Shown here: positions 3,814-64,000 of the stretch, piece after piece
Layout of the letters: every line of letters starts with the position of its first letter
Position numbering within the stretch: the first letter of the stretch is position 1
Position numbers and translations under genes: made by a program
NCBI GenBank assembly: GCA_905178155.1
Contig: CAJINV010000005.1
Span: forward strand, 2,792,054 to 2,856,053
Length of the DNA: 64,000 bases
Direction: 5' to 3'
Source: Amoebophrya sp. A120
Taxonomy: Eukaryota; Protista; Dinoflagellata
The notes under the pieces: model-generated
Databases searched by the model: none
What the model saw: only the letters and a program-made list of their open reading frames with translations
Told to the model about the DNA's origin: nothing

Positions 3814-4187
3814 TTTTATTTATGTGATTGTCGTCCCAGCATCTAGCGTTGGGTTGAAGAATAAAAAGCTGCTGCACCAGCGGCAAAGTCAACGGACGTA
3901 TTGTTCAATGGCTAGGGGGGACCGTTTCCTATCCGTGTGAGGCTACACCTGTATCCCTCCGCGCGGGGGGATGAAGGCGATGCGGGGAGCGTAGGCTTCA
4001 GCTCCCATAGACAAGCATCACTGTTCGTTATCGTTGTGCACTTCCGCCGTGGTGTCTTTGTTCTCAGTTGCTTTTTTCCTGCAGTGGCGCTTTACTTTTC
4101 AAATTTGTAATTCTAGTCTCGTACCACCTAGCAAGTATTTCTTCACAAACACCAAAGTCGTCTTCGTTCCTTATCAACTCGCCAATT

Positions 4188-11127: not shown

Positions 11128-11955
11128 AGAAAGAAGTGAAGCAGACCAAATAAACTTAAACCTTTTCTTTCAGTCAGACCCTGGCGCGTCTCTCTCAGTC
11201 ATGAACGAGTCTGCCTTCGCAGCTGTAGCCGCGAAGCACAAGAGTACAAAAGCACGATAAGTGGCGGCGCCACTGCCCCCACAAAAAGAACATGACCGAA
11301 TTGAAATTTTCAGTCGGATCTGGTGGCTGCGGTTTTACATGTGCAGTATCGGCACATTTTTTGTTCCTTCATGCTGCAAAACAGGCTCGCTAATATTCGA
11401 TCTTTCCTCACGCGCCGTATCGAACGATTGGTCATCCTCATCGTCTTTTCGTAGACAATTTTCGTTACCACACAATCACGATCTCCAGTCGATTCGGTTC
11501 TTATTCGTGGGTCTATGTTCTAACTCGGCTTCACTATCGCACAGAGATCCTCCTCTTGATCTTCATTCGTCTATAGCAGTTTGGTTTCCGTTCGGGCTCG
11601 TCGGGGCGGGAAGATTGTGATAGCATTATCAGACGAAAGAGAAATGGGACATCGACGACGAAGCGAATCTCGGTAATTTTCAGCAACAAAATGGGGCTAA
11701 AATAGGTGAGAATGCCAACTCAAGTCAAGTGGATCATGATCAAAATGCGCAGTTCCCGGCGCAACATTTTGTGGCTGTTGTCATATTTCATGCGAAAAAG
11801 AACTCTAAATATAGCTCGACGAGTATCGAAATCGATCTAAGCCTCCCTCCTGTGGTCGTATGTCCTGTTTTTTCGTCAGTGTCTCGTCGTCACCCACCAT
11901 GATGGACATGTTCCCCTCGGCCCGGTATACTAGAAATTCTCATTTGTATTGCCAC

Positions 11956-39400: not shown

Positions 39401-42400
39401 GAGATCCGCCGCGTCAAGTCTGCCGTCTCGTGCCCCAGAAGGATGACCAAATGCACACAATTAGGTCAAAATCATCATGACCGACGATAGCTACCTCACT
39501 AGATAATTTTAAAAAAATTTTCGCTTTCGTTTCAAATTCTTAATTCGATAACGATAACAGATTTTTTTTCACCCCCTGCACGTCTCCGCAACACTTTGCG
39601 AAACTATTGCAGGAAAATCATCTTAGCGATGTCACTGGAGCGGACTGCAGTGTAGGTCCGGTAAATTTGTCAAACAGTGCAGGTGCTGGAGGAGCTTCTT
39701 GCATTTCTGCGTCTGCAACTGGTGCTTCTGGTTCTGCTGGTACAAGCAGAAGTCATCCAGGTGCTCCTGCTGCGTCCTCTTCAGCAACGACACTACAGCA
39801 GAATCAACAGCTCGACAAAAGAACGCAGGAGCAGTCACGACAGTCTTTTCTGAACCGACAGAAAAACACGAAGGTGGATCAGATGGCGCAGTTCTCAGAC
39901 GATTCAGCATCTTCGGACTACGAGGCAATCGAGACCATGTATGGCGGGGGGCGACGTCGCGCTGGTATTAAAGGCGATAGGAACAAACGCAAAACCGATA
40001 GCAGGAATCCAGCAAATGAAATGACCGACACAAAAATGGAAGAGGCCGCGGCGCCGTCTTGCTCTACTACCGGCGAAACTGCAGCCCAAGGACCCACAAC
40101 ATTGAAATTGATCCAGAACGACAACGATGATGAAAATATACAAGAGGTCTGCGAAGTAGACAACACCGACCCGCAGCAGCAATTGTGCAGTTACGTCGCT
40201 GGAACTACTACAAATGCGCCCGACGACCAATCCGACTCTGACAGTGAAGAACGCGAAAAACTCCGGATTCAGAACAAGGTCCTTGACGAATCCCACCGGT
40301 ACGCGCGGGAGCTGTTCGGGTTTCCGGGGGATCGGCGGCGAGACCACAACTTAACCCGTGGCGGCCGGAAACTTTGCCCGACCATGGCAAACCGGCAGGT
40401 CGCGTGCAGCATCGTGGAATTCTACGCCTGCGGCGGCGTTCTGAGGTATCCCTACGAAAACGCGACACCCCTCGCGCAGGACTTCCTGGCCAAGTTGCTC
40501 ACCGCGTTGGAGCAAGATCGGTTTTCAGCGAAGGAAGCGCTGCAACACCCCTGGATCACAACGATCGACTTCCGCGATCAGCAGTACCAGCGAAGCAAGA
40601 AGTTGCGGAAAAAATTCTCGAAGTTGAGGACAGTGTATGGCAGTAGAACGTCCTGATTGGTCGTGTATCTTTCCGTGCATACTATTCGTGGCCTCGATTT
40701 TTTCTTGATGAAGATGAAGTTGTAGTTGGCATGAAGATGGGTGAGCGCATTCACGCAGTGGCATTTTTCGTTTACGATTATTTGGCGCGCTTTTGAAAAA
40801 TAAAGGGCCGATGCGTCGGTTTTGATGTTGCATAGCAGAAAGAAACGAAAGTTCCATTACGCGTACGAAACAAAATCGAGCATCACGAAATGCATGGACG
40901 ACAAATTTTTCAGCTATATAAAGTGGTGAGTCCATTGTCGCGACGATTCTGATGGTTCTGCGTGAGCTTTATGCAATAGCAATACCATATTTTCCGCGCA
41001 CGTGCAAAATGCGACAGTTTTACTCAGGCTGGAACGCTTGTCATGCTGACTTCTAGGACCGGAGGGCAGGCAAGTTTTGTTATGCAGCGATTCCGCATTT
41101 GTACGTGTACAGGAAATTATTCAAGTTTCCTGTGGATAAGCTTGCCAGCAATTACATACACGCGCCGCCGGATGATCACTATTTGGCTTCTGGCACTGAA
41201 ATTTGAAAACATTTTCCGATGCATAATGGTGGCTATCTGTTTAGGCGAACAAGGCTGCAACTCTTTGCTTTTAGCACTTTCGAGTGCACCCTTCGGCGCT
41301 TTGTTTTATCCACGTAAAGGCTCCTAATACTCAACTACTCGCCCCACGTTATTTTGGATGTTTCGCCGTCGAGTACTCCTCCTTGATGCAGACGCGTTTT
41401 TTTTTTTTACTTTCCGCTCGACGACACACTAACACCACTACGCCTAAAGCCACGACTCAGTGTAGTCGTCTTCACATTGACTTACGCACGACACACATCT
41501 GAGAATAGAAAATTTTAGTTGATATCTGTCATTTCTAATTTTCTGAGAATTCAAAAAAAAATTGCATCTGCAGCTACCTATCTGCATATGTTCTCCAATG
41601 ATTTCAGCCTGCCATGTATTGAACAAGAGCTGAAAATGATTGTTTGTTCGGGCCTACTTTGGTGGTGGAACGCGACGCTACTGCTCACCGTTTTGTTAGT
41701 GCTACAACTTTAAAGAATTAGGACATTGTAAATGTTCAACAAGTTGAGATATATTTTTCTTTTTCCACATTGGACGCGGCACTTATCGTATTGTAGAAGC
41801 GTTTCGCGGTCCATCGTTGACTCAGTCACCATGGGCATGAATCTTCTCTGCGATAAAGATAATTCGTGCAATTTGTTCCAATCCTTTTGACGATTTTTTT
41901 CTAGCATCTGTTTCTAGGTCTAGCTTTGTAATTGTAATATGTTGGATTTTTGAAACGTCAGGTGTTCCTATTCTGGCTTATCCCACGTTTTTACTTTTTG
42001 TGAAACGCAACTGCAAGCATGCCATGCTAAGGGCATTTCATCATCCAATTTTCCGTATTCTATGTCGAAAAATGTCCGCAAAATCAAAAGCAAAAATGAA
42101 ACCCAGAGCTCGTTGTCGTTTGAAAGAATGTGAATGAAAATTTGATTTATTTGTAAACGATAGATAGTGACTCTGTGGCTCGTCTTCCTGCGAATCGTGG
42201 ATTGATGATGAAGCTTGTGTTTACTAACTGCAGGCAAGAACAGAGTGATCCATCCTGTCTGTTGTGTTGTCTTCGTCTTGCCCCTGCTTGTAATTGAACG
42301 TGATTGCGCTCTTCAGAGAGAAATTTTCGAAGATCCTCGTTCTTGGAGATCAGCAGATTGTCGTGGTTTTTTGATCTTGGAAGTTGCCGCTTCAGAAGAT

Positions 42401-43345
42401 CCCGTCTTGCTAGTATTGTGTTATTGCCAATTTTATGCGAGTTATTCGTCCCGTTCCAATCTGCTTCGGCTCGGAGTCATGGTCTATTTTTTGCTGGATT
42501 GATTTTCCCCCGCCTGCACCTGCAATTGCATTCGGTCGTGCTCCGTGCACGCAGTAAAATAATGTCATGATTCGTAAACATTGAGTCAGTTCAACATGGA
42601 GCCCCTAGAGGTACGATATTTTCGTGCAGGTTGCAAAAGCCTGCGCGACTTTTTTCTGGCATTTTTCTATTGTCTTTTTCCTACGCAAGAAGGTTCTGAC
42701 AAATTTTCAGAAAGAAGAGGATGCGCAGGTCGCCGCAAGTCCAAAGCACATCAACCGTGTGCTGCTGCTGCTCGGGCGGTACTCGTCTACAAACGACGGT
42801 CGAGGACCAAAAGCGGGGTCGGGGACGCAAGAGTGATGTCATACCGCAAAGAAATCCTCCTCGTGCTTCCCATCGTAGTGTGCTCGCGATCAAGAGTTTA
42901 TGTTTTAAACGGTCGTTAGCATACAGAAGGGTGAATTCCCAGTGAATTTGTATTGCGTGGCATGATGCATGAATTAATCAGGTGCATGCGAAGAACACGG
43001 GGACAACATACAAGAAGCCAGCGCGCCGTGTTGATGGGCTGCTTGGCTGGTGGCGCTTCCCTCCTGTGGACGCTTGCCGCTTGTTGCCCAAAGTGGCGCA
43101 CCTGGTGGACTGCGAAGCAACGCAGGTGGCTTGTGGCGGTCTTACAACACGACGCTGCATGATCCGCCGACTCGATAGTGGCGGATCGACCGGGACGAGG
43201 GCCATGCCTGAAAAGGTGGCCAAATGTACTAGCTCAACATGTCAAAATAGAGAAGTCGCGTCACGGGTTGTGGCTGCCTCGGCTTGGATATCTGAAGACA
43301 GGTTGCTACGGATGCTAGCATCGCCTGCTTTGCTCTGTAAGTAAC
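28965..43345 (+). repeat. Near-identical 7190-bp tandem duplication (28965-36154 / 36156-43345), likely assembly artefact
   Basis: All ORFs recur at +7191; the junction is a single N at 36155; only one difference was noticed (near 36104 / 43295). Confidence 0.9.
31051..32284. mobile_element. Nested TIR element with a 15-16-bp flanking duplication
   Basis: TIR atgattttga...gtgtgcatttggtca 31051-31082 / 32253-32284; direct repeat tagctacctc(a)actag at 31033-31048 and 32297-32311; internal aaccgataac repeats in both orientations. Confidence 0.7.
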
Positions 43346-44088
43346 CTCTTCCCAGCTGTGTTCCTGCCTCATCTTGGTCGGTTCCTCTAGTAGTCTTCTT
43401 TGACGTGACCCCCAGGTCAGGAATTCTCTTGGTGAATTTTGGGGCTTTTTCTTTTTGTTAAACTTTTTGGAAGCCCCAAAACCCGGAGTTTCTCACGCGC
43501 TAGCGAATTTTGAAAATGAGCCGGAGGCCAAAATTCACCGGCGCCCTTTTCAAAATTCACCCCAAAACTCACCGGGCGCCCCTTTTCGACCGTGATACGC
43601 AAACTTTAGCGCAGAAAAGTGCTCAAAAAAGTGCACAGATAGGCCATGAGAAGGAACGCAAAGGGGGGAAAAGCGGAGTCCTCTGCTGCCCTAAGCCCGT
43701 CTGTGTTCTGCTGAAAATGCCGCAAGATTTCACGCGCCTGCCGGAAAAATGCTTCAAAGCTCTCGGTCGGGTCCTTTCGTCCTTGCCTGCCTTCTTGCTT
43801 AGTTGTATGCGCTTCGCAGCCTTTATTTCTGGCGTCCTTGCCGCGGCTGCTGCAGTGCTCTTCTGCGAGAACGGGGAGGCGCAAAAATCTGCCCAAAGAA
43901 CGGCGCCCGGGCCATGTCCTCTGGCTGCCCACTGCACAAAAGCCCGCGGCTGCTGCGCGGTGCAGGGCCTTCTACTTCCCAGAACAGGGCCAAGAGGGAC
44001 AATGTCCCGGCGGGCTCATCTGCAATTTGGCATGCAAAATCCACTACAAATTCACCACTTCTCATGCTAACGGGTGTTAAAGCTCTAG
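42888..44088 (+). mobile_element. 1.2-kb TIR element between duplicated gene starts (arm 1)
   Basis: Ends cgttagcatacagaag...cttctcatgctaacg; flanked by about 60-bp repeats at 42821-42887 and 44089-44150. Confidence 0.8.
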
Positions 44089-44150
44089 GCAAGAGTGATG
44101 TCATACCGCAAAGAAATCCTCCTCGTGCTTCCCATCGTGTGCTCGCTTAT

Positions 44151-45341
44151 TTAGAGCTTTAACGCCCGTTAGCATGAGAAGTTGCGAATTTGTAGCGAAT
44201 TTTGCATGACAAATTGCAGGTGGGTCCGCCGGTACATTGTCCCTCTTGCCCTTCTGGGAAGTGGGTTCTGCACACCGCAGAAGTCAAGGCTTATGCGGCG
44301 GGCAGCTTCTAGACATGGCCTGGGTGCCGTTCTATGGCCATGCCCATTCGTCTCCCTGTGCTCGCATAAGAGCACTGCAGCAGCCGCGGCAAAGACGCCA
44401 AAAAGAAAGGCTGCGAAGCGCATGCAATTAGGCAGGAAGGCGCAAAAAAAAGGGTGAAAGGACCAGGCCGAGAGCTTTGACGCGTCTATCCGGCAGGCGC
44501 GTGAACTTTCCAGGCCTCTTCGGCAGAATATAGAGGCGCTGAGGGCAACAGAGGGCGCTTGTCTTTTCCCCTGCTCGGCCCCACTTCCCAGGGCCTATGT
44601 GCGGACATTCTTAAGCACTTTGCTGCGCTGAAGTTTGCTTATCACGGTGGAAAAGGGGAGCCCGGTGAATTTTGGGGTGAATTTTGAAAAAAGTGCCGGC
44701 GAATTTTGGCCTACGGCACTTGTTCAAAATTCGCTGGCGCATGAGAAACTCCGGGTTTTGGAGCTTCAAAAAATTTTCGCAAAAAGAAGAAGCCTCAAAA
44801 TTCACCAAGAAAATTCCTGACCTGGAGGTCTCGCCAAAGAAGACTAGAGGACCCGACCAAGATGAGGCAGGAACACAGCTGGGAAGAAGTTACAGAGCAA
44901 AGCAGGCGAAGCTAGCATCCATTGCAACGCGTCTCCAGCTATCCAAGCCGAGACAGCAACAACCCGTGACGCGACTTCTCTATTTTGAGATATTGAGCTA
45001 CTGCCCCTGCCCCCCTTTCCAGGCATGGCCCTCCCTATCGATCTGCCACCATCGCGTCTGCGGATCAACATGCAGCATCGTGCTGTAAAACCGGCGCCAC
45101 AAGCCACCTGTGTTGCCTCGCAGTCGCTAGGTGCGCCCCGGTGGGCAACAGGCGGCAAGCGTCCACAGGAGGGCAGCGTCACCAGCCAGGCGGCCCATCA
45201 ACACGGCGCGCTGGCTGCTTGTTTTCCTCGTGTTCTTCGCATGATGCACGTGATAGATTAGTTCATGATGCATTGCCACGCAATACAAATTCACTGCAAA
45301 ATCACCCTTCTGTATGCTAACGCCCGTCCAAGGCATAAGGT
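44151..45341 (-). mobile_element. Inverted, diverged second copy of the 1.2-kb element (arm 2)
   Basis: Reverse-complement similarity to 42888-44088 along its length; followed by a third repeat copy at 45342-45409. Confidence 0.8.
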
Positions 45342-45356
45342 GGGGACGCAAGAGTG

Positions 45357-48300
45357 ATGTCATACCGCAGAGAAATCCTCCTCGTGCTTCCCATCGTGTG
45401 CTCGCTTATCACTTCAGAATTTCTCGTCCCCGCACAAGTTCACCTCTCGTCCCCGTCAGAAGCCGGGATATTAAAAACCCCAACCCCGCCCAACGAGACC
45501 CTCCTCCTCCGCCCTTCCGGCACCCCGAAGCAGCGGCCGGTGCAATGTTTTGCGCATTCGGAGTTGACGTACCGTATCAAATGCAAAAATGTCTGGGTCT
45601 GGAAGGTTGGAACTTGTGATGCTAACTTTGGATATATAAAAAAATCTGTATTGCATGACCAGCAGGAGGAGTCCTGTTTGTGCTACGCGGGGAGGGCATT
45701 TGTCATGCGGGATGGGCATCAGGAAGGCCTCTAAAAATATGTGATGCTAGATCATGCATTACAGACATCCCGAGTCATGCAAAATATGCATGACAAACCT
45801 GGTAACCTTCCAGACCCAGACATTTTTACATTTGATATACCAACGGTGCTGTCAACAGCGGCAGGAGCACTGCGTCTCCACGCTGTCCGACCCTGCGTTT
45901 TTCTACAAGGCCTGCTGCGAAGACCGGTACCTATCAAATGTAAAAATGTCTGGGTCTGGAAGATTTTGAGGTTTGTCATGCATATTTTGGAAGACTCATG
46001 ATGTCTGTGATGCATGCGCTAGCATGACAGATTTTTGGAGGCCTTTGTGATGCCTCTACCGCATGAGAAATGCCCTCCCCGGGTAGCACAAACTGGAGTT
46101 CTGTTGCCGGTCATGCCATGCAAATTTTTTTAGAGTCCAGAGACAGCATCACAAGTTTAGAATCTTCCAGACCCAGACACTTTTGCATTTGATAGTACCT
46201 CGCGGTCAACGACGTTCCCGCGCACCTGGGAAATCTCGTCATATCCTGTGCAAAAGTGTCGTACTCGTATAAATGCAAGTCTTGCATTACAAATCTTTAT
46301 CGTAAGGGAAATCCGCATTACAAATTTTCTCTCTTATGCTGAGAAAATTTGTAATGCATTTATACGAGTACGATACTTTTGCAGTTCACACGTCACCGCG
46401 CTGGTCGATATGGCATACATCGCGAAGCAAACAGACAGGATACTGTTGGCGCCAGTGGACAAAAAACTCTTTGGCCCGGTGTTCAGCGATTTACGAGACT
46501 GGTATAATCGCAACGGGGGCGCGCCGGATCTTCATGCTGGTAGTTCGCATTCTGTCGGCAGCGACAAGGGTAAAAATAATATCAACGTCGAAAGGCTGAT
46601 AGATGACGGTCTCTCCGAAAGCGATCCTGCAGCGCTGTGGCAGTTTCTGCGAAAAGCTAAAACATCATTGCAAAAGGGAACTGCAGCAACCGAGCACGGA
46701 GCAAACCAAGAGCAGGAGCGTCAGGAGGCCCTTTATTGGGCGAAGCGACTGTATAGGAAGCGATTTCGAGAGCGGGCTGATGTGAACCCCTTGGTGAGCC
46801 TGGTCGGTCAGAGACCAAAAACTAGCGAACAGGCGCATCATAATAATCATCCTGCCGGTGCAAACAGGACGGCAGAAGGCAGACTTGAGGCAGCACAAGC
46901 AGCACGCTCGTCGACCAGCGGCCGTGGTCCTCGAGGAACCTACAGAGAAGCGGCACCCCTTCATTATCAAGCTCTCAAGGATCTCCCCGTGACCGCAAGC
47001 AATCTGAGAAAGCTCGCCCTCGCCTACGAGCAGAAAACCCAGAGGTTCCGTGCGGTGATTGGCCGGTCTTTTTTCAAGCTCGGCTGCCCGCAACTCCCCG
47101 TGGTCGACATCGCGGGCGGGGGTCGGGAGGGTCCGTTTCGCTTCGCCTTAGATCAACAGGGCGCCGAAACCAGTCCGGCGAAGCTGATTTTGATTTATCA
47201 GGGTTTGTACCACGATCACTCGCTGGACACGATCATGCAGCTGCACGGTAAAAAACAAATTCTCGCGGACAAAAAGACCAAAACCATGCTGGAGAATTTT
47301 CCGACGAAAATCTCCAGCAAGAGAAGTAGAGGCTCTACTACTTCAAAGAGGACTACTGGAGATCATGTTGAAGTAGACGTCGACCCGGATGAAGATGATT
47401 TTAATTCCTCAGACGAAGACACGGAAACGCAAAAGATTTCCTTCTCCGGCCACTTTCCGGATAACTACCCCGTGGGCGGAAGGGAGGAGATATCCACTGC
47501 AAAAGTATCTCACGACTGGCATCGGTTGCATACATACTGTATGAACCAGTTGCAATACAGCAATACAAATTTCATTTTTCCTAAATGTAAATCTGCAACC
47601 ACCACGCAAACCATAGCTAGTACAACGGCACTTTTGCAATGCATAGGAGACCATTGCACGCATGGAGAAGAAGATGGAGGAGGAGCAGAAGCTCGCGGAG
47701 AAGGATACTGAATACGACAGGACGATGAAGTCGCGGATTGACGAGATGGAGCTCCACTACATGCTCTTACGGGACCGGTGGGTCGCGAGATTTCCGCAAG
47801 TCGTCAGATTAACCGGCGAGGACGCAATTACTTTCTGGGATGAGATGGAGAAACCGATCCGATATCCTCGCGGAAATGACCAGAGCGGCGGCAATGAAAA
47901 CGTGCAATTCCTGAAAAGAGCGATACTACGGAAGTACGAAGCGCTGTATACTTCGCAAATAAATGCTTCATCAGCAGAGGCAAGACAAAAGTTCTATCAC
48001 CTACTCTTCCACTCCAACCCCCCTGTTTCTCAGCTGAGAAATCTCTACCGCTTTCTGTACCACGACGACGCCGCGCCGTCGAGATTGTTACCTCCTGGGT
48101 TGGTCAAACCATTTCTGGTTTCCGAGTGCGGGAGTCCGGATTACGGAGAGAGTGGAAACTCGGTCGCTTTACTGAAATACGCGGAACGGCAGAACGAGTT
48201 TCTTTTTGGACATCAAGCAAATTTTCTGCAAACCGCTGCAGAAGAAGACGCGAGCAGAAATCACATGAAACGAGTGCGACACCGCGAACACGGAGCAAGT

Positions 48301-51300
48301 AAAAGCCGGCTTCTCGATCGGCTCAACAAGCAGCGCGTGAACCACCTGCACGCGCACCATCGCCCCTGTTTGGTCGACCGGTTCCTGCAGAGCAGCTACA
48401 TGAAGGACCACAAGTGCGCGATGCTGCACCAAGTCTTTCATTTTGTCGACTGGACCGTGGAAGACGCGGACTTCAAAAGAATTTTCCTCGCCAGTCTGTG
48501 GATCCATGTCGTGGAGGAGAACGCGATCAGGCCGTATATTGGATTGATACAGCCGGCGGACCGTGAAGATGTTCTTCCCCGAAGAACAGACGCAAATGTG
48601 GTCCAACCGAATGATCGAAGTTCCTCTTCTCTCCGGCTAACCGAGCTTCTCCATTTCCTCGCCACGAACCGCATCATCGCGGTGCATTTCCGCGGGGCTT
48701 GGGGCTACCAGGGCGTGGGGCTGCAGATCCTGGAATTGGTGAAAAAAACCGGAATTCAACTCGTCTACATAGCGACCGACAACATCCGCTTCGAGCCGTT
48801 TCGGGAACTGGTCACGACGTTGCGAGACGAGTTTCAACTTACCGTGCTTTCCTCAGAACTCTCGGAAGCGATTGCGGCTGGAATCGGAAAGGAAATCAGC
48901 GGGGTAGCAGATCATGCCACCACTGCTGCTCAAGGCCAGACTGAAGATGACAGCCGCTCCTTCGGCGAAAAATTGCCGACGTTTCAAAGTGCTTGCACTG
49001 GCACTGGCGTGTTGAGTTGTATCGTCGAAGCAGGAAGTGCTTCTCCAACATCGTCACTACCGGCCGAAGCTGTGGTGGAACCGACTGCTAGCACCCCTGA
49101 ACGAAAAGAACCTTTATCAGAAGAAGACGCGGAAGCCGCTGCGTTTCTTCGGGGTGATGAAGAAGCAGAAACTACTGGCAGCACTGCCGCCCATAATATA
49201 ATCCCCACCCCAGACGAGCCCGTTTTTAACAGCGCAATCCCATGGCACAAGCACCACTTGGAATCTCACCGGGGCAAACTGCCTAATCTGGCGCTGCACA
49301 TCGACTTGTGCATCTGCACCCTGGCAAGCAGTTTCCTGGGACAGCCGTTATCCAGCCTGTCCGAGCTGATCATGAATTTCAGGACCGTCGTGCGGCAAAT
49401 GCACGGACGAGGTGATGATATTGAAGATGCCGGAAAAACCACCACTTCTAGTACCGGCAAAAGTGCCAGCAGCGAAGTAGATGCAACAGAAACTACAGTC
49501 TTGTCGTCGCAGAAATGGAAAAGATTTATTCTGAAGAGGCACTACAGAAGTAGTCACAAGGGAAAAAGTGAGACCAAGAACCGCGGTAAGGACGTAAGCC
49601 CAACCTGGCAGACTTCCACACACCCGGTGCTGGCGTTTTACAGAAAAGTGTTTCAGCAGGTGCAGCAGTCGCCATCGTCTTCCACCCTGCCGCGCGGGGC
49701 TGCACCAAATCCGACCGCATCTTCGTCCTCACCCGCTTCCTCGTATGCAGTATCTACTAGCCCCCGCCGGACGGATATCGCAAGAAAAAAGTGTTACAGT
49801 TACACATTGTCATGCAAGACTGGCAACAGAGACAACCTTTCTCATGCAGGAAATGCTTCGGAGCTTCGTTTTCTTCCTGCTTTCCCTTGTGATCTTCGCA
49901 TTACAAGTTTTCTCTACCACCCAGAGAAAATTTGTGATGCAGAAACTCCAGCAAGTGTGTAACTGTAACACTTTTTTCCGTGGATAACGGAAGCCTTTCT
50001 GCACCTACCGCGCGATGTCCTTCCTGTGGATCAGATTTTCCCCATCAGCTTCTACAGCGCCGATGAAATCGTCAAAGCAGATTGGATGCAGAACTTGATT
50101 GACGCGTTTCACATTTTGCAGAAGCAAGAAGCACAGAAGTCGACGGACAGCACGACAGACGCACGAGGACAAGGAAGTGAAAACAAGAAAAGCCCAGAAC
50201 AGAAGATCAGCAGCCTTGTTGCGAGTTCCGGCGCATCGAGTGCTACAACTACTTCGCTATCGCTTTCGACCTACTACATTCCCGCCGTGTTCACGGACCC
50301 GCTACCGCAACCGCAAGCCCCCGGGGGACACAACTACAGTCACCTTCTGTACAGCAAATTTGTGATGCGATTGACCCAGTACTACCTCGCCTACAACGAA
50401 GAGACAAACGAGTACGAGCGCGCGGAAAATTCCAGATACGAGGACTTACTCCGTCCCTTACACAAGAACCCGAAAAATCATGACGACCTCCAGCACGACT
50501 TTGACCTAACAAAAGACTGGACGCAGGCCACGGTGTTCGCCGCCACCTTCTACCACGACTTGGGACGGAGAAAGTGCCACTCCATGGGGCTGTTGCTCCG
50601 CTTACGGTTTGTGGTGTTGTTTGTGTTGTTTGGAAACTACAACAAATTTGAATGCGTCCGGGAGTTGAGCATTTTCGGCTACTTGTTGTACACAGAGATT
50701 TTCAACCAGGGGCTCGGCGTGTGGCGGTTTCTGCGAAATTTTGTCCGGTTGCCGGAGGAAGAACCGGCAGGAAATGCTGTTGAAGATGGAACTGCAGCAA
50801 AGGAGGAATTATTATTTCCAGAAACCACAACAGCAAACATCTCTTCCAAATCCCGGCAGCAAGAGTGGATTTCGCTTCTCAACCTCCTCCGCTTATTCCT
50901 GCAAAGAACCAAATGCCGCGGGCAGTACTTGCAAACGTTTTCCGACAAAGTCACCGAAGACGATGACTACCTGCACGCGTTTTACCGCCCGGAGGCCCCG
51001 TTCTTCCAGAAAACACCGATCCGGCAAAAAGCGCTGCTAAACAAATTTGTGAAAGAAGAGGGGGAGACACTGTACATTGCGCCAAGTGTCGAGTTGGTTC
51101 TGCCGAAGAAGTGCAGAAGTAGGGCCGCGCAAGAGGATTTCGTTGTTGGTGGCAGCAGCAGAAATGTTGAAGCAGGTCTGAGTCATCAAGAAGACGAAGA
51201 AATCGCGCAAAGAACTCTGGAAGAAGATTCGAAAGCGAAGCAGACCGTGCTTTCCTACTTCGCCGGGCCGGATAAGTTTGAACTCTCTTTCCTGTTTCCC

Positions 51301-52053: not shown

Positions 52054-54237
52054 TAATGAACAGCCACGGAATTATCGACTATGTTAGGCAGCACTGAGAC
52101 TAAAACTCAGTACTTCTTTCCATTTCTTCAACCCAGTACTTGCTGTAGACTTGTCATCTTTCGGTTCTCGTACACCAATGCGTGCAACAGAATCAGAAGA
52201 ACGAAATTTGCAGTATAATCCTGAAGATCCAGGCCTCCAGAGGGCTAAGGCACTGTAGCTGATGCATTCAGTTATATCAAATCCGCCCGGGAACTAATTT
52301 GATTTCAAATCAATTTCAAACTAACTTCAAAGATTTTGAATTTTCGGATTTTTGACCTGTAGTGTGATGTTTGATTTTGACAAAATTAGTCCATGGCATG
52401 AGAAGTACTTACCCTACTTTGCGCTGCCGGTTGTCCATTTTCCACAACGCCGACGATTGTCCACGCTGCTCCCAATGCTGCTTGTTCATCTCCTTTCCCT
52501 TCGGCGTGTCGCCCCGTTCTGCGAGCGTTACCGATCTATTGCCCCCTGCTCTCGCGCTTCACCACAAAAAAACACCGACCTGCTGCTGCTGTGCGCAGTA
52601 TTGACCTCCGTGAACATCGACTGGAAACGGCGGCCGGCTGCGACTGGCGATCGTCCATTCCCCCGCCAGGTGACCTCGACGCGCTTTTTTTTTCTCTACT
52701 TCCAGCGCAGGCCACGCAATGAATTTCGATAGAATTTGTTTTTTGAAAAGATAAGTTCTAGGACCGCTAAAGGATAAACAGTCTTTTGAGGTTTTGCTCG
52801 CTCATCCGAAGAAGAACGGGTAGCAATGTGCTCCTGTACTGTCACGTCAGACATAAGGTGGCTGAAAGTAAGTCTGCGCGCAGCTTGATGATGACCAAGC
52901 CACGCGTCGAGTCGTAGTGCCATTCATCACCCGTGAGAAACAGCAGCACTAGAACCAACCTCGAAATAATATAAAAGTTCATTAATTTGCAGGCACGGCT
53001 GCTATTTGCATTCTGAATCTCACCACAACATCATAAGACAAATAATCAAGTTCGAGAAAAGTAGTGTTGCCGTTGCCGAGTAAATTTCTAAATTGCTTTC
53101 ACGCCCACAAGCACCACCAGGCAAAGAGGCCGGAGCCAGATCATCTGGGGCCTAGCGAGGCGAGAAAGTGAAACCGTGCGTCCCTGCAGTCCTTGTCGAC
53201 TGCGTTCCATGATTTCTGCGAGACGGCAGAGAGTCGGCGCTCTCGTGATCTCGCTATCTGCTGTGCGATTCTGGGACGGGTATAACAAGTGGACTAAGAG
53301 AATAGTTCTAAGTAGGACACCACTGGAAGTAGAGCGTAGGTAGGGTTTTACAAAAGTCAGCTCGCTGCTCAGGTTGGGGCAAACTGGTGCGTCTCGACAT
53401 TGCACTTCGTCGCCGTGTAATGAGAAGGTGCCTGCACTATATAATTGAATTAGAAAAGCGCGGCGCTGTTGCGCTTTGTGGGTCTCGTCGCCAAATTTAA
53501 ACGCAGCGACGAGATGGTGTCAATTGCTAATCTGGGCAACAGTTGCGAAACAGAAATGAAGAACAGCTTAATTTAGGTGGGGAGCGGAGAATAAACCTAA
53601 AGCTCTGAATCAATTAACTAGAAGCCGAAGCTTTTGACTTGCAGCAACAGCAGTGAATGGCTGTAGTCTTTATCTTTTCATCGAGCGAGAGTAAACATTT
53701 GCATTTCTAAAACACGGCCACTGGATATACAAACACTAGCTCGAGTCGGTCGGCGCAAAAGCATTGCACCCACGCAAAGCTCAGCAAGAGGCTAAGCGGA
53801 AAATAGTTCTAATAAATGGCGACGCAGAAAACGGCCGCTAGTATAGTAAGTTCTCTTGACTCGCTTAGGTCGTTTCTGTGCACCGTGGACTCAGCAAGAC
53901 TGGGTGGTCTTGTAGAGGTTCAAACAGATATATTTATATACTCTGACTGCAAGTCCAAGTCACATCGGCAAGCGACAACCACTAACAAACAACGCAAATA
54001 CAAATAGGCAGATGATTGGCTCTCTTCAATCGAGTCAATCTCAATTCAGTTTTAGTACTATTATCAAGTTTGTCATGCACATTTTGATAGCTTTTTTAGT
54101 TTTTCAAGATAATCATCCATCATACAATTGCGCTACATTTATCGGCATTGCACAGCTGGCTGCGCAAAACATTTCTACTTCATGATCTTTTCCACAAACC
54201 GAATCAACAACATTTCCACTCCACAACCACAGGAGAC

Positions 54238-56599
54238 CTAGGCGTCGTCCCCCTCCTCCACCAAATCGCTGCCACCCTGCTGGTTGTTTCCGTTTCCACC
54301 GTTGTTGGCGGCCGCCGGGGGCGCCCGCTTGATCGCGGCCTCCTTCGCCTGCAGAAAGATGGCCAAAATCTCCTTGGAGGTGGTCTTCAACCAGGTGCAG
54401 TTGCCGTTCAAGGTGTGCACACCGACACCATTCACCGCCCACAACTTCTCGATCCCCTCGTACTTCTTGTACCACTCCGTGAGGTCCTTCAGGGTTGCGG
54501 TGGTGCTCGCTTTGAAGGCGTCGACCTCGGTTTTCGCCGTGGTCAAGAAACCCAGCGCCTGCTGCTTCTGCCACATCTGCACCGCAGTTCCGAGGTGCTC
54601 CCGGGCGGCAATGTGGTCGTCGTGCGCCAACTGGGTAACCGCGAACGCAATGGCGTTTTTCACCTCGGTGATCTGCGCGATAGAAGGCGAGCGGCGCAAC
54701 AACTTGACGACCTTGGCGTGCGACGAGATGTAGGACCGCTCCAACAAAGCCGCACCGGAGATGATTTCCATGGTACCCGCCGCGAGGGCGGGGGCGGGGT
54801 TCTGCAGGTTTGCGTTCACGACAGCCCTGCAGGCCACGCTGTATTCGTCCCACTCCGCAGACTGCTTTTCGTTCACCTGCGCACCGAAACCGGGGCAGTT
54901 GCTGCGGACGGATTCCAAGTGTTTCGCCCAGTCGATGTTCAACAGGTGGGCCGCGACGTACTTCTTGTTCAAGGAGAGAAATTTGGTGACAAATAATTTG
55001 ATCTCCTTGTTCATGTTTTGCAGCGTCTGAAACTGCGCCTCGTTGAGAAGCGTCTTGGTCTTGTTGATAGCAGCGGTGCGATCGGTTGGGGCCATCAAGA
55101 TGAAACTCACGATGGGCACAGAGTCGTCCTCGGCCGCGATCGCACTCAGGACCTGGGGGATCTCAAAGTCGAAGTCCGTCACCGTCTTCTTCTCCGCCTG
55201 CGTCAGGGCGACGTTGGTCAGGACATGCTGCCGCAACAACTTCACCGTCAAGTCCTTCTCCACCCCCGTTGCAGCGACGGTCACGAGGTCCTCCACAGAC
55301 TTGTAGAACTTCCCGTAGCATCGAGTGCAAAAATATCGCACCACGAGAAATCGCATGACTGCGCATCACTCTTTTGTTCCAGCATGACAGATCTTGCGTT
55401 TTCTTCCGAGAGAATTTGTCATGCGATTTCCGTTAGTGCGATAATTTTGCAATGCTTATGTTGGTGGATTCTGGCTTGTTTTGGGGATTTTGCTGCCAGG
55501 TCTTGATTCTGTCCTTCACCTCCGGCATGGAGTTCTGCGTCAACAACTCGTAGTGCTTGCCGATGTTGTCCTTGATGTATTTGCGGGTGCTGATCCTGTG
55601 ATTTATTTTTTCATTATTTTCGAGTTGGGAGGCGTATTGCTATCTTGCGCGAAGCGCGTATCGAAATCAGGTCCCATAGGCCACAGGTTGCAACACAATT
55701 CGCACAGTGCGAAAAGCAAAGCGCTGCACAACACTGAACCGAATCCACCATAATATACGTCATGCAAAAATTTTATCAGGTTCAGGGCGGCCCAAGCTGC
55801 AAGATAATCCCATCTATAATCAGGTCGGCGTCGTATCTCGCCAGACAACACACACAAGAAAATATGTAAAATACCAGGCCACGACTTTGTCGATCTTGTC
55901 GAACGCCGGCGGCTTGTTTTTTTCTTCCTGCTCGAGGTCCTTGTTTCCCGCCACGGCTTTGTCGTCCTTTTTGGAAACGTCCGCAATTTTCAACTTCCCC
56001 TTCCCCCGGTTTTCCATCTCGTACTTCTGGTTGGGCTTGCACAAGTTGATCATGCTGGCCACCAAGGTTTTGGTCAGCCGGACCCGCATCTCCGGGAGGG
56101 GAAAGCCGAGGTTGGGCTGGTTGAAGGACTGCTCGACGTTTCTCAGCGCCGCATAGGAGGTGGTCTTTTCGATCAACTCCTCGCCCTTCTTGACCACGTC
56201 TTCCGCCTGCTGCTTCGTCCAGGTCGCCGCCTCATCCCGTTTCAGTTTGAAAAACCCCGTGTTCCACGAGCCGACATCATCGCGGGTTGCCAAGAAGACC
56301 GCTTTGTCCTTCGCCACATCGTTGTTTTCCGGATCGTCCGCCGCCTTCATCGCGTCCAATAATTCCCGCGCAGTATTCCGCTGGTCCTTGAAGTCGCGCT
56401 TGATGTTCTGCGTGTTGTAATTGCGGCCGCGCACGAAGTCCTCCGCGGCGTCTCGGACGTTGGGGTCGTCCATGTTAACCGCGGGGAAGGTCCGCTGAAA
56501 TTTCTCAATCTCCGTTAGGGTTAAGCGGCGCTTCTTCGATTCCGGCTCCGCCATCTGCTTGGCCATGAACTTCATGGCCCTCTTGTTTGACTCGCTCAT
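54238..56599 (-). CDS. Hypothetical protein of about 640 aa, three exons
   Basis: ORFs 55820-56662 and 54238-55356 plus a small exon at about 55497-55595; GT-AG intron 55596-55874; the second intron boundary is uncertain; no recognised domain. Confidence 0.65.
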
Positions 56600-58249
56600 T
56601 CTTGAAGCCGGGTCGGTGACAGGAACAAAAGCTGAAGAGAGAAGGAGAAGTAGTTGCGGCAACGTCAGTAGCTGTTGATCTGCTGTCGTGTCGACGAAAA
56701 AGTTGCAGTCGCAGCGTGCTCTCGTCTTCTGCGGCGGTGCGAAAGGTGCAACGCCTTGGAGATCAAGCCTGCCGGGACAGAAACGCTTGACAGAAGGCCG
56801 TGGGGGTGGTCTAGTTTTGTTCTATAGTTTCAAAGCCAGGTGCTTCGGTGCGTGCGGTGGTCAGAATACACTGACGGCGCGCGAGCTCTTATCACTGAAA
56901 CCACTAATACAATGAATGCAAAACACCAGCCAAGTGAACCCTTTATGAGTCACAGCTTTGCTGTCGCAATTTGCAGGCTACATCGATATGACACCTGATG
57001 CGATTTTTGCGTTTCTTCTTTTGCAGAATTCGACCGGCGATCGAACTTTCCGAAAACGAATCAAGGGCGCCAAATTTGTGTTGCGGGAGCAACTCCTTTC
57101 CCTCGCTCTGTAGTCCGTGAGGCCTTTTTTCGTTTCCCTCAAATAGCTTAGAACTCGAAGTAAACTCAACACTACCGAGCTGCTGGTGCTGCGCTGCGTA
57201 CTAAAGAGCCTTCGCAACTCACAAACTTCGTGCTTTGGTGGGGGCGAACCTCTAGTATGCTTGCCGGGACCTGAAATAAAAAAGGAAAACCAACACCCCA
57301 GGGGGTCTAGGTGTTGCAACAAAGCTCCTCCCTCGAACCCTCGAAACGCAATGTCGTTGTAGACGACACGGAAAGCTTGGCGGACGCAGAAAAAACAGGC
57401 CGACGTGAAAAAACAAAAACCGAGCACAACCAACGTTGCGCGAGCGCATCGCCACAACATGGAGTCAGGGTGGCGCCCCTCAAGCAGCTGTCTTTTAGTG
57501 GGTTTCTAACTAAGCGTAAGCGGGGCCGCTGCGTCGTCAGGAGCAGGGCCAAAAAAAAAAGACCGATGGAAAAGGCACGAGCCCAGGAGAGCGAGCAGCC
57601 CCCGGCGTCGCACCACGCAGTAGGCACTTTGTAGCGCCGAGGCAGGGCGAAAAGGCACAGGGCGCGCCACCTTTTCGTGACCTAATACGGGGCGAATTTT
57701 GGCACTTTGCCTGTTCCACCGCCCTAGCGGCGACGCAAGGTCCCCGACAATCTTGCCGTAGAACGCTGCCGCTGGGCCGGCTGGGGGCGACGCGCTTTTG
57801 CCCGAAACACGACCTAGAAAGCTACTTTGCTGTTATGGGGATGGGAGAAAGCGACAAAAATGTCGCCGCTGTTACTGCATCAAGAGACGCAGTGCCGCCG
57901 TAAACGGCCGGCATCTAAGGTGCGGGGAGGCCGCTACTCTTCACCCAAAGAAGAAAACTTTTGAACCCATCTACTGGGGGCGCCTGCTTTTCTGAAACCC
58001 AGAACCCCGACCACCGCAAGCAGGCACCCCCCTGCCCTCAAGAGACTCCAGAGCCCCCAAAACCGGCAGGCCCGGCATCTAGAATGTGCGCTGCGATCCG
58101 TAGCGGCCCGAAGCATACGCAGCAGGCGCTCGAGCCGTCTGCGCCAGCCCAACAAAAATTATCGCGGCCGGCGCGAAGCGCCGGCCCCACCAAAAAATAC
58201 AGGTCCCGGACGTGCCGCGATCCGACGGTTGAAATTGGGCGGGCCAAAG

Positions 58250-58362
58250 CAATCCACCGTTTGAAGTTGGTTCGAAAAAGGCAATCCGGCGTTTGAAGTT
58301 GGTCCAAAACTGGCAATCCGCCGTTTGAAGTTGGTCCAAAAGTGGCAATCCGGCGTTTGAAA
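58250..58362 (+). repeat. Tandem repeat of about 33 bp (gcaatccggcgtttgaagttggtccaaaa), 3-4 units
   Basis: Direct reading of the sequence. Confidence 0.8.
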
Positions 58363-58683
58363 TGGATTCAGTCCAAAAGCAGTCCAAATAAGTCTGAACC
58401 AAGATTCTAAGTAGGCGGATTTTTTTGGACTGCTTTTGGACTCTTTTTGACTTTTTTGGATTTTCCACGGATTGCTTCGATTCAGCTCAGAAAAAAATAC
58501 ACAAGTTCCAAACCTCCGTCTATCGAAAGAAGGACAAATTTGCTTCGTTAGCTCATTGGCAAGCACACAGTCAGTGAGGGAACGAAGCAACTCCGTCTGT
58601 AGTGCGAAGCTGATAGCTAAACCCTGAAGGCGACAGTTCCGCTACCGCTGCTTGCCAACCTACAAATCACAAAACTACTAGCA

Positions 58684-61600
58684 CTACACCAGCGGGCTCA
58701 AGAACTGGAGCTCGGCCTCCGGAATTTCGCAATACGATAAAACGTCCGCCCGCTGCACCTTGTCTAGCTCCTGCTGGGTAATGGTTTCCACCGTGGCGAG
58801 CAACTCCTTCACCATTTCGCCGTATTGGGTTTTGAGTGTCTTCTGCGCTTCTGCGCTGGCTTTGTAGCTGCTGTTGAGGCGGATGCGGGTGCTGCGCTGG
58901 ATGATGAAGCTCTGCATCCAACACCAGCCGAGGAGCAAACAGGTGCACCACATCATATCCTTCAAGTTATCGCGGGTGTAGCCCAGCCGCCGAACTCCTC
59001 CCTTCACCGCTTGGAAAGATCGAAAAGCATTCAAACCCGCGACAGCAGTATAGAGTTTTTTGGTACGCCCCTGCGCCGTGCATGTAAGGGACATGCTTAG
59101 GTTGTTTTTCGCAGTGTGGACGGACGTACCGTCGGCAATTTTCCACTCCCCCGCCGGCAAACACCCCTCCACCCAACTTTCTGCGTCTTCGGATATCTTG
59201 TTCCGCTTTCGCACCAGTTCTCGTGCCTGCTTATCGGTCAGGACAAGGTAGTTGCTTCCAACGGATGCGGCGGGGTCGTCCGCTCTGCTGGATTCGTTTG
59301 TGGCGGCGAAGGTGCTCTTCGCCTCGCCCTTTGCCCCTTCTTTCCGGAAAGCAGGATGCGTTCGGCTTCCGGCATTCGCAATGCCGTCTTTCTTCTGTTT
59401 TTTCGATCCACCGTCGGCCCACCGCTCGTTTCCAAGTAAAGGTCGGGAACTCGCACTCGAGGACGACGCACTACTGCTGCTGCCGGCTACTGTATCCGCA
59501 CCCCGCTTGTTGTTCGCGGCCACACCTTCAAAGGCGGCATTGTTCCACGCCCGCATTCCTGCTGCCCCATGCGTTTTGCTTTGGACATTGAGCCCTCTGA
59601 CGCCGTTCGCCACCTTCGATAGGGTCGCGGGGGCATCGCCTTCAACCCCCCGGAGCTCCCGCAGCAGCTCCTGTAGGTGCTCGTCTGCGCCGCTCTTGCT
59701 GTCTTGCTTTGGCCGCGGGTTCACTTCCACCTTCTTCTGTTCCTGGAGCTGCACCTTTTTCGAGGGATCAAAAATCTCGCCGGCGATGGTCCAAAGTCCG
59801 GCCGGCTCCAATCTCGCCGACTTGATGCAGTACTTGGTCTTCGCGTGTTTGCTCCTGAAGTCGAAATCGCTAAAAAAATAGCGGTCGCCCGGTCTGCCCG
59901 GCGCCGGCTTGAAGGAGTTTTTGTTTTTCCCCTGCGTCAAGCGGACTAGTCGCCGCGCTGTAAATTTTTTCGGCTTCCGCAAAACCCACACGACCAGAAG
60001 CGCCTCCTCGGAGCCGTCGGAGTTTGTGAAGACGATGAGCAGGTGCGTCCCGGTTCCCATTTGGATCTGCAGGTCGTCCCAATCGTAGTCAAAGTTTGCA
60101 GCCTGCTGCGCCTGCTGCCCGTCGCCAGCCTGCCCTTCGTCGTCCGGGGTTTCTTTTGCCGCCTTCTTCGCAGCCGGCTTGTGCAAACTGGTAACCCTGG
60201 CCAGGTCCACCGCGGTTCGCACCAGGTCATTGGGCGGCTTCCGCCACATTTCCACGGCGTTGAGGGAGAATTGCTGTGCCCGCGGCATAAACAGCCGCTC
60301 TTTCACCGCAGCTGCCCGCTCCTTGCACGTGCCGTCCTGCCACTGTGTCCGCACCGCAGCCTTGACGCGGTCGTAGAATTGCAACTCCTCCCCCAGTACT
60401 ATTTTTCTTGCGTGGTTGCGGTCCGCGTTTTGAAAAAAATGCTCCTTGCGCTCGTCTTTCCAGGCTGCGAACCCTTCCTTTGCGGCCTTGTTGTGCTCCG
60501 CCGCCTCCACGACGTAGACCTCCCAGGCGTCGGCGCCGAGCGTTTCGGGGTTGGCGCTCTTGTTGGCCTCTGCTATGGGCATCGGCGGCTGGTCCCCGAA
60601 ACCTGTCATGAGATCTGCGCGCGCAAATTCCTGCGGAATTTTTACGCGGCACCGGGCTAACTCCCAGCCACACCGCTCGAAGGAATCAATTTCGTCCAAC
60701 TCCGTCAGCCTCTCTTCGGTTTGCCGCGCCAATGTGCGCCCGACGTTCTCCGCGTCCAGCGCATCTACCCCCTTCGGGTTTCGGGAATCCTGCATGCGCT
60801 GCAGTGTGGCGTGCTTGCGTTCCACCGGCATCGTGGTCTTCGAAATTTGCTCTGCTGCGTCCGCCACCTCATTCATAAAATCCACGGCGCTACTGAAGGG
60901 AAGGACCTGCGGCCGCACGCTCGCCTCGTTGGCGTGGTAAAGTTTGCAGATTTCCTGGAGCTGGACGAGGGCGATGGAGGCGGGGTTGTCGGTCTCAAGC
61001 TTCTGCGGGTACTTTGCAAATTGCTTCAAGTAGGCACCGCGCTCGTTTTCCGGCAGTTTGCCATACCCACGGAGAAACTGGAAGTGCTTGTGGAAGGGAG
61101 TCTTGACAACACGGCTGTAAAAAGCGGCACCCAAAACCTGCAACGACTGTCGCCCGGCGGCGCTGTAGCGTTGTATCATGTCCGCCGAGATTTTTGGCTC
61201 CACCATTTTCAACAAAACCCCCAACGTGTCCACGTGCAAAAGCTCCTCCGCGGCGTCCAGGTCTGCGTAGAACCGGTCGTGGCAGGCTTCGTCGCCACAG
61301 GAGGCGTTTTCGATCTTTGCCACATGCCCCTCGTAGTGCTCGATAGCTCGACAAAGGACGCAGACCACAACCATCGACCCCGCAACCTCTACACCAGCCC
61401 ACTCACTTCCGGATCAATACGCTGCAAAAGGATCGCACTTGTCCTTGTGGCAACTGCGCTTGCATTACAGATTCAAATTATTTTCGCAGAAACATACAGG
61501 AAATTCAAACTTGTCATGCTGATTCAACGTACACGTAGGAGAGGCGGGGAGATTTCAATCTGTCATGCATGATTTCCACTCCGTCCGATGAGTATGAATA

Positions 61601-63764
61601 TGCATTGCGACGCGCGCGACCCTTTTGCAAACGATAAGACAAGTGCAGCGACGACTTGACCAGGCACCCGAGCATCTCCGCCACCACAACCCGCTCCATG
61701 TCGGACCCCGCGCGAATCCACCTACTGAAACTTGGGGGCCTGATTCCCCTTGTCGCGGTCGCCAGAATCCCCATCGCCATCGCCTTCACCTTCTCACTCC
61801 CGCCCCAGCTGCTAAGCTCCTCGTCCGAGACGACAACAGCAAGACTCTTACTCCCATCGATGCTGATTTTGTTGAGGAGGAGGTCCGACAACGAGCGGTC
61901 TTTTTCTGTTCCCGAATCTGCAACCCGTGCTGCGCCGTAAACACCTCCGGCGAGAAATTTCCGCAGCGCCGCTGTTTGCGGCGTCATGCTGCTACCGGGT
62001 AGCTCGGGCGGTTTGACAAGCGAGAAGCGCGATGGCCCGGCCGGAACCTTCACCCGCTTCGGAAACTCCTGCCCCATGTTCGACTGGATGGCGAGCTGGT
62101 GCTTCCCGATGAGTTTCCCGGTAACAAAAACCTTCTTTTCCCACTTCTCCGTGTCGATGTTGCAGCGCAAAAGGAAAAGGGTCGCAGCCTCTTCCAGGGC
62201 TGTACCGCACTCGTGTTCCTCGCAATGGCTCGGCAAATGCACCAAGTGATGGGCGGAGCCGCTTCTGACGAATTCCTTTGGTGCGGCAGCTGCGTGTTTG
62301 GCCTGGCACATCAGCCCGGTCGCCTGGTGCGTCAAATTCATGTCCGGCCCGCGCAAATATGGATGGAAAAATAGCACAGCATGCTGGGAAACCACACCTC
62401 TTCGATTGTTTAGAGCGTACTCATGCCAAAATGGCGTGGGCTTACTGATACTATCGCTCTTTTTGCTTGGTACAACAACAACGACAACACAACTCCAGAT
62501 AGGACCCTGGCGCGACGGGAGCGTAGCGCATGTAAAGCATCGCGCCACTAATCATCTTTACATAAGTCATATAATCAAGCATCACAAGCTGGGCACTTTC
62601 TTCTCCCTTTCCCTTTTTTGGAAAAAAAACGGAATTTGTCATGCGTTATGGCATGATGAGTGGGCACCATTCCACTCACCTGGTTCCCTTTTTTTACCTT
62701 AGATCTGAAGACGAAGAAGCTTGTCACGCAAGCACTGTAGCATGAGCGGGTAGTGGTTCTAATTGATTCCGCTTCTCTAGGATCGCGCCAGAATCAATAC
62801 GCATGACAAAATCGAGGAGGCATCTTGTTCCAGCATGCTGCTTGAAAGAAGTGTGTTCGGATAAATCGCTCGACGTGTTGAGCACGAGAAGGGGGGGAAA
62901 CTTTTCGGCATGCGACAAGACGTTCTTCAAATCCCGCACGACGGTGTCCGCTACCCGTTGGGACGGTATGCGATTGTCCTGCAGGAGAGTCGCGATCTGC
63001 TTATCCTCATTCTTCAGGAGACCCTCCTGAACCACTTTCGAAGGCTGGAGGATTGTTGACGACGGCAGCGTGACCGTCTTCCAAGTCTGGCCCGCCTTCC
63101 AGGACAGGGTTACTATTGTGACGAAGAATTTTGCAGCGCGGTCGATGATCGTCAGCTTATTCGCGCCGACAGCTTTGCCAAGGCTGTCGACGCCCAATCT
63201 CGCCCCACACGGCGTCGCGTCGGACATGTGCGTCAACACCGCCGACCTGTTTCCACCACTGCTGATTATTTTCCCTGCTTCTCGTTCACCTGCTTTTTTT
63301 GCAAACAGGGCAGCCCGCTCCCATTGGACGTCGACGCGTGCCTCCCCGCTGAAGAACGGCTCCACCGTTCGATCTCGCGTCGCATCGGGAGGAAGATCGA
63401 CCTCCATGTCGGCGACACCCCCGGGCGAGTCCGAGGTCGCTGTCCGCTCCGACATGGTCTGGTTGCTGCCCGACTGAAAAAACTCTCCTCCCCCAATAGC
63501 TGCACCGCCGGTATCGCTTGCCGCAGAAAACTCGTGCTGATCACCCCAGTCCAGCAGCAACGCTGCATCGCCCCCGCCGGTGGACACGTTTGAAAAGACA
63601 TCATCGACGCCGCCAGAGGTCCCAGGCACAGCTCCCGACCAGGTAGAAGATGCTGAAGGCGAGGCGGAAATATTGTTGTTCCAATTTGTTGACGCATCTC
63701 CAAGTTCGTCGAACGCAAAAAAGTCGCCCTGCAGCTCTGCAAGCTGTGCAGCCGCTTCGCTCAT
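58684..63764 (-). CDS. Divergent hAT-like DDE transposase of about 1450 aa, at least three exons
   Basis: Ordered motifs HMSDATP (D ~63220), TSSDLS (D ~62866), CEEH (~62218), FSRW (~61720) and TTMPVERKHA (E ~60821); inferred introns at about 62387-62840 and 61412-61637. Motif-level recognition only. Confidence 0.55.
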
Positions 63765-64000
63765 GTTGTTTACCGGTCGTCGCCACTATCGAAAAGAACT
63801 AGCACGTAACAGCGGAAACCTGTGGCGTGGAGGAGGAGTACACACACACGAAGGCTGCAGACGGCGCTAGTACGTGCATACGAGCCTATGCGAAAACGAG
63901 TTCTTTTGTTTTGCGAGTCCGAGTTCAAACTTTGCCGACCAAATTTGCGATCCTCTCCTGTGCGTGCTTTGTTTTTGTATCGATTGCGACACTTCGCTCA

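Follow-up and report, generated by a model that had tools for sequence, protein, structure and literature searches.

The window analysed here, a 64,000-nt stretch of Amoebophrya sp. A120 (contig CAJINV010000005.1, positions 2,792,054 to 2,856,053), carries on its minus strand a split gene for a transposase-like protein. Three minus-strand open reading frames (ORFs) form its exons; joined, they give a coding sequence of 4,344 nt for 1,447 residues with 0 internal stops. Exon 1 (63764-62865) encodes residues 1 to 300, the N-terminus being poorly conserved, and holds both the predicted catalytic Asp D182 in the motif THMSD (63219-63221) and the predicted second catalytic Asp D300, which is its last codon (62865-62867). 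Directly after this codon follows intron 1 (62354-62864, 511 nt). Exon 2 (62353-61637, residues 301 to 539) opens with RGPD and encodes C344xxH347 (62213-62224) and R511-W512 (W codon at 61718-61720); intron 2 (61411-61636, 226 nt) separates it from exon 3. The latter (61410-58684, residues 540 to 1447) encodes a predicted helical insertion domain, the predicted catalytic E736 in VERKHA (60820-60822), and then an extension of ~700 residues. The genes throughout the window are filled with introners, here elements with TAT...ATA ends and 5-bp target-site duplications (TSDs), and the question that arises is whether the transposase-like gene spreads them. No paralog of the gene lies within the window.

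That both introns are spliced out is suggested by homologs from Amoebophrya strain AT5. Two AT5.2 proteins, g7311 and g750, align to the three ORFs in order and run uninterrupted across both breaks, thereby setting the exon junctions. The intron 1 junction may slide by one base, making residue 301 either R or C, while removal of intron 2 brings back the LHLS-GSEW register of the homologs. An earlier note on this DNA, made from the letters alone, had joined the same ORFs into one protein with five motifs in order, and every motif lies where it had been placed. Of its second Asp motif, TSSD stood; the "LS" that was read after it proved to be read-through into intron 1, and in the spliced product TSSD is followed by RGPDM from exon 2. 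No RNA record across either junction was found in the run records searched. A 208-nt contig of run X8, taken by guess to be an RNA run, lies within exon 3 at a depth of 2.7; the raw RNA runs X4 and X5 cover neither the gene nor its neighbors and are uninformative on expression.

With exon 3 as the query, phmmer returned 3 matches among 1.84 billion representatives, all linked to AT5.2 proteins, and cluster look-ups together with a profile search resolved them into four: g7311 (1,554 residues), g750 (1,508), g6092 (1,275), and g816 (1,056), all unannotated in EukProt EP00392. The protein is colinear with these homologs over its full length at 40-44% identity (over residues 129-300, 82/161 to g7311 and 97/169 to g750). 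The conserved blocks span residues 129-960, 980-1095, and 1255-1447. The C-terminal extension that the earlier note could not explain is real: ~700 residues follow E736, and within them the blocks 781-960, 980-1095, and 1255-1447 are conserved among the homologs together with a variable linker. Relatives of exons 1 and 2 from outside Amoebophrya did not appear in a word-limited search (0, 2, and 2 matches, all AT5.2), the phmmer search having covered exon 3, and viral and prokaryote contig searches for homologs gave no match. One metagenome locus was rejected as a chance hit, a 34-residue match that contains a stop and around which the rest of the protein is missing.

The AT5 homologs are four dispersed paralog models, 42-69% identical to one another. 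In a five-row unrooted tree the window protein groups with g7311 (100/100, with a short inner branch), and this grouping only suggests that the family split preceded the strain split. The average identity of Amoebophrya orthologs is 48-51% (PMC7789003), to which 40-44% is near, and vertical descent therefore fits. No description of this protein family surfaced in the open-access literature. Collectively, the family appears to be undescribed, divergent, and hAT-like, with members so far in Amoebophrya only.

The residues D182, D300, C344, H347, R511, W512, and E736 are invariant in every sequence that covers each of them (for the triad, n = 4, 3, and 5 at D182, D300, and E736, respectively). 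Of the 1,447 columns, those that do not vary between the three full-length sequences include a single CxxH and a single RW. Column shuffles reproduced the ordered pattern D..D..CxxH..RW..E in 6 of 5,000 cases when global and in 14 of 5,000 when local. The D-to-E span is 436 residues, and the spacings H347-W512 and W512-E736 are 165 and 224, compared with 171 and 319 in the domesticated yeast hAT protein Kat1. An AlphaFold model of the g7311 core from a 7-row alignment had a mean predicted local distance difference test (pLDDT) score of 44 and a predicted template modelling (pTM) score of 0.31; a single-sequence model of exon 3 reached a pLDDT of 40. In the low-confidence core model a strand precedes D300 and a helix follows it, a strand and then a helix are found at CxxH, E736 lies in a helix, and the insertion is mostly helical. 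Among the 30 ESM neighbors of the core, most are unnamed eukaryotic clusters (best score 0.90); the only named ones are DUF659, FAM200-ZBED5_RNase-like, and DUF7963 (0.78-0.79), the first two of which we take to be hAT-linked.

These results suggest that the gene likely encodes a divergent hAT-type aspartate-aspartate-glutamate (DDE) transposase. A DDE transposase fold is probable, and if the protein has that fold a hAT-like identity is also probable. The RW motif and the long helical insertion are the only features that point to hAT rather than to the other groups with the D-D-C/DxxH-E order. The reading in the earlier note of a hAT-like transposase thus retains moderate support from motif conservation, motif order, and Kat1-like spacing; whether the protein belongs to hAT is not settled by this, as no hAT profile matched and no confident fold was obtained. 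In the predicted mechanism, the catalytic metals would be held by D182, D300, and E736 within an RNase H-like core that a helical insertion of ~390 residues interrupts. C344xxH347 and W512 would, as in Hermes and Kat1, help the flanking DNA to form hairpins, and the conserved C-terminal blocks would stand in for the missing BED finger in DNA binding.

Turning to the introners, a scan of the window recovered 24 TAT..ATA pairs (80-400 nt, at least 16/25 inverted identity), 15 of which carry a flanking duplication of at least 4/5. Ten locally shuffled windows gave 1-5 such pairs, 0-2 of them with duplication. Fifteen introners picked by eye show an exact 5-bp duplication in 12 cases, an exact duplication of 2 bp in one, and of 3, 4, or 6-10 bp in 0. 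Since this set was chosen partly for its duplications, it is the comparison with shuffled windows that tests the point without bias. The claim in the earlier note that the window holds TAT...ATA elements with 5-bp TSDs was therefore correct; the introners are real and beyond chance. Once an element and one duplication are taken out, one or more plus-strand frames stay open across the site for 14 of the 15, a permissive test in GC-rich DNA. The elements fall into several families with 68-85% identity. The reference copy of family A (263 nt, 45932-46194) has TAT...ATA ends and an exact 5-bp TSD, and other copies start at 13332, 23619, 25322, 27880, and 45575 (68-84% identity among copies). Internal motifs of the GCATGACA type occur 43 times in 3,369 nt of introners. 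Moreover, in the DNA run the summed contig depth is ~10^5 in introner bins and ~45 elsewhere. Published A120 introner ends consist of TAT, seven variable bases, and at least three A, with direct repeats of 3-5 nt (PMC7789003). The ends in the window have TAT, seven variable bases, and an A run; hence, these are the published A120 elements and not new ones. At 45575-45625, RNA run X4 has ~130 reads that are 90-95% identical to the end of a family A introner, these being its only matches in the 19.5 kb compared; we read them as a related introner copy in another locus or strain.

Both introns of the transposase-like gene are themselves old, decayed introners, as judged from their ends and internal motifs. 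Intron 1 is a decayed TAT...ATA element with TAT at 62863 and ATA ending at 62358, in which the terminal inverted repeat (TIR) is reduced to 8/25 and the TSD is lost. Intron 2 is related to a 146-nt family and has TAT...ATT ends and a 5-nt TSD slot (TIR 16/25, TSD 2/5). In each, one end fits a matrix built from 30 introner ends (scores 10.7 and 14.3), the opposite end and the TSD having decayed, and removal restores the frame. Each intron also holds three internal GCATGACA-type motifs, while the exons and flanks have none. Most introners of the window are less decayed than these two, and the gene has therefore long been a target.

Is the gene also their source? The earlier note proposed it as the autonomous driver of the TAT...ATA introners, a claim that the flanks, the depth, and the homologs speak against. 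In the 2,064-nt downstream flank no introner-type end was found (best matrix score 4.1, against a shuffled median of 6.8), nor in the 236 visible upstream nt (best 3.5); by the same matrix, 25 of 30 left-out true ends score at least 10.7. No inverted repeat connects the visible flanks (best E 0.71). A 32-nt tandem repeat (3.5 copies), a 10-nt repeat, and a 25-bp hairpin at 58249-58460, 220-440 nt downstream of the stop, possibly represent subterminal repeats of an element whose ends are not of the TAT type. In DNA run X1, the depth over the gene is 43-62, compared with 43-55 in most non-repeat bins, i.e., single-copy depth, and one 11.9-kb contig of this run spans 52604-64000 including the gene. 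Moreover, AT5 carries its four homologs despite having 99.98% canonical introns (PMC7789003; see also PMC12005148).

Taken together, we consider it probable, at roughly 55%, that the gene is an old, low-copy resident of Amoebophrya that was invaded by two introners and is not their spreader, and that it likely encodes a divergent hAT-type DDE transposase. Whether it is an ageing transposon copy or a domesticated gene is, like the fold and catalysis, a matter that we can only infer. Several points weigh against this reading. Copies with <90% identity are invisible in the depth comparison, and a depth summed over contigs is not a true count of copies; three of the 30 true introner ends score <4.1; and the upstream flank is visible for 236 nt only, so that the upstream end may fall beyond the window. 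As to the protein, D300 and CxxH are covered in only 3/5 sequences, because the gene models of g6092 and g816 are without that stretch. Furthermore, 44 acidic residues are invariant in the alignment, and conservation alone therefore cannot pick out a D/D/E triad; the spacing windows of the shuffle pattern were chosen after the protein had been seen. In the core model pLDDT is 31-38 at D300, CxxH, and E736 and <30 at D182, for which the model lacks a strand. The structural check proposed in the earlier note (AlphaFold followed by Foldseek) gave, within those scores, a strand and helix context at D300 and CxxH that would fit; it gave no DDE fold match to this low-confidence model, either with Foldseek (PDB and viral models) or with VIA-align (48,161 chains), where the 7-row model found generic helical matches only (best Z 8.1). 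Sequence searches of Pfam, NCBIfam, and PDB with ORFs, fragments, and homologs gave no transposase match, including none to Dimer_Tnp_hAT, DUF659, or similar Pfam hAT domains; likewise, 9 fragments of the window and 2 homologs run against Pfam, and a PDB profile search, revealed neither a transposase domain nor, for the C-terminal extension, an HMG-box or AP2-like domain. ESM scores <0.9 are leads only.

That the introners are driven by an integrase-like (Ginger-like) transposase, the resident gene being unrelated to these elements, has close to an even chance and is compatible with the resident-gene reading. Family 38 of the A120 introners has been classed as Ginger, with "5-bp TSD, TA/TA Termini" and a length of ~810 bp, and it has near-identical copies and ORFs homologous to Copia/Gypsy sequence (PMC12130899). 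The Ginger2 elements TDD-4 and TDD-5 also make 5-bp TSDs, and their TGT termini are one base off TAT (PMC2836005). By its published description, family 38 is thus a candidate for a rival driver. The text of the same paper, however, states that family 38 is without homology to known Gingers and without their termini and TSDs (PMC12130899), and ~810 bp would probably be too short for a full transposase.

An Amoebophrya-specific host protein without a DDE fold, its motifs being coincidental, is unlikely. The blank profile and fold searches and the many invariant acidic residues would agree with such a protein, and ~60% of Amoebophrya proteins are without assignment (PMC7789003). The motif order is rare in shuffles, however; the predicted strand/helix setting of D300 and CxxH would fit a hAT core, and four dispersed AT5 paralog models with 42-69% identity suit a transposon-derived family. 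It is also rather improbable that the DDE transposase belongs to a different C/DxxH superfamily (MuDR, P, Kolobok, or Dada) or to a sister lineage that has no name yet. These groups have in common a C/DxxH that follows the second Asp (PMC3706591), neither a BED finger nor a match to the hAT dimerisation domain was seen, and for the exon 3 part there is an ESM lead to Plavaka (0.85, on 19% of cluster members). The invariant RW and a D-to-E span of 436 residues, compared with 176 in Dada-U6_DR (PMC3706591), argue against this assignment, as does the absence of Dada CCCC or CCHC fingers among the conserved residues.

The weakest alternative is that the protein, or a sister copy elsewhere in the genome, acts in trans to mobilize the TAT...ATA introners, possibly from a gene that has itself ceased to move. 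Its frame is intact and all predicted catalytic residues are present; the upstream end is out of view, and action in trans would be open to a stationary gene. The repeated internal introner motifs resemble, by analogy, subterminal binding sites. Farhat et al. found no transposase in A120 (PMC7789003), and a true driver would therefore have escaped profile search, as the window protein does. Moreover, 56 of the 58 A120 introner families are without a superfamily (PMC12130899). TSD length is labile in hAT, some of whose lineages make TSDs of 5, 6, and 7 bp (PMC12730594). The earlier note drew support from hAT5, which makes 5-bp TSDs; hAT5, however, belongs to the animal Blackjack lineage (PMC12730594), and its TSD is therefore no evidence for the window protein. 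In this scenario, the missing A120 transposase would be an unrecognised hAT-like lineage with 5-bp TSDs, an end-less, stationary gene moving tens of thousands of introners in trans, and its expression would need the splicing of two introners, one directly after the second catalytic Asp. We regard this as improbable, since the visible flanks are without cognate ends, the depth is that of a single copy, four homologs reside in a strain with canonical introns, no observation links the protein to introner ends, and the co-occurrence of gene and introners is expected because introners fill genes throughout the window.

Farhat et al. argued against a transposase-driven spread on the grounds that no transposase was found in A120 (PMC7789003). 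An intact, profile-invisible, likely DDE transposase weakens this argument even if it is not the driver, and it provides a concrete enzyme that can be tested against introner ends. It also points to a divergent transposase-like family that is overlooked by standard annotation and whose C-terminal half is unusual. Were the gene the driver after all, it would account for a burst of non-canonical intron gain that ranks among the largest known.

The remainder of the window contains host genes on the plus strand, i.e., a GT10 fucosyltransferase (4011-6752), an acyltransferase (8790-9515), an M14 carboxypeptidase (11815-12786), a protein kinase (25586-27277), and a gene with a weak O-fucosyltransferase match (47647-49959). 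Downstream of the transposase-like gene and co-oriented with it, a minus-strand coding region (54238-56599) is cut by decayed introners, one of them at ~55319-55451. Its product has only a sub-threshold Glyco_tranf_2_3 match (22 bits, cut-off 27), and it is possibly a host gene or cargo. Between the gene blocks, a variant contig of run X1 at 52311-52633 (depth 68.6, 7 changes and gaps) suggests a low-copy repeat. A near-perfect tandem duplication of 7,191 bp (28965-36155 and 36156-43346) has identical ORFs and is either a recent duplication or an assembly artefact. Beside it lies a long imperfect palindrome (43391-44846) with arms that are 76-89% complementary and more arms extending to 45222. 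The ends of other elements may be marked by a tandem array of 11-nt units and by palindromic repeats rich in GC, at 1976-2724 and 28879-31023.

hAT transposases have the consensus ERxFS, a BED finger is usual in them although not universal, and their TSD is usually 8 bp. The window protein resembles Hermes and Kat1 in the order of D, D, CxxH, RW, and E and in a long, mostly helical insertion. It differs from hAT proteins in its length of 1,447 residues, the ~700-residue C-terminal extension, the lack of a Pfam hAT domain match, ERxHA in place of ERxFS, and the lack of a BED finger, the homolog alignment having no invariant Cys or His before H179. In the visible flanks, neither element ends nor a TSD of its own were found. 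In Kat1 the corresponding residues are C402/H405, W576, and E895, and the H-to-W and W-to-E spacings are close to those seen here (PMC4763223). The D-D-C/DxxH-E order as such is common to hAT, MuDR, P, Kolobok, Dada, and IS256 (PMC3706591). The window protein differs from Dada, a group that inserts in small-RNA genes, in having no conserved CCCC/CCHC fingers and in a D-to-E distance of 436 residues as opposed to ~176 (PMC3706591). With hAT5 the shared feature is a 5-bp TSD that belongs to the nearby introners. Among the 58 A120 introner families, one is Ginger, one Mutator, and 56 are of unknown superfamily, none being finally classed as hAT; family 135 has terminal-profile matches to hAT5/hAT6, yet it is classed as a non-LTR element (PMC12130899). 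The introners of the window, for their part, match the published A120 elements in both end motif and direct repeats. The AT5.2 homologs share the architecture, the motifs, and 40-44% identity with the A120 protein and differ in that their strain has canonical introns.

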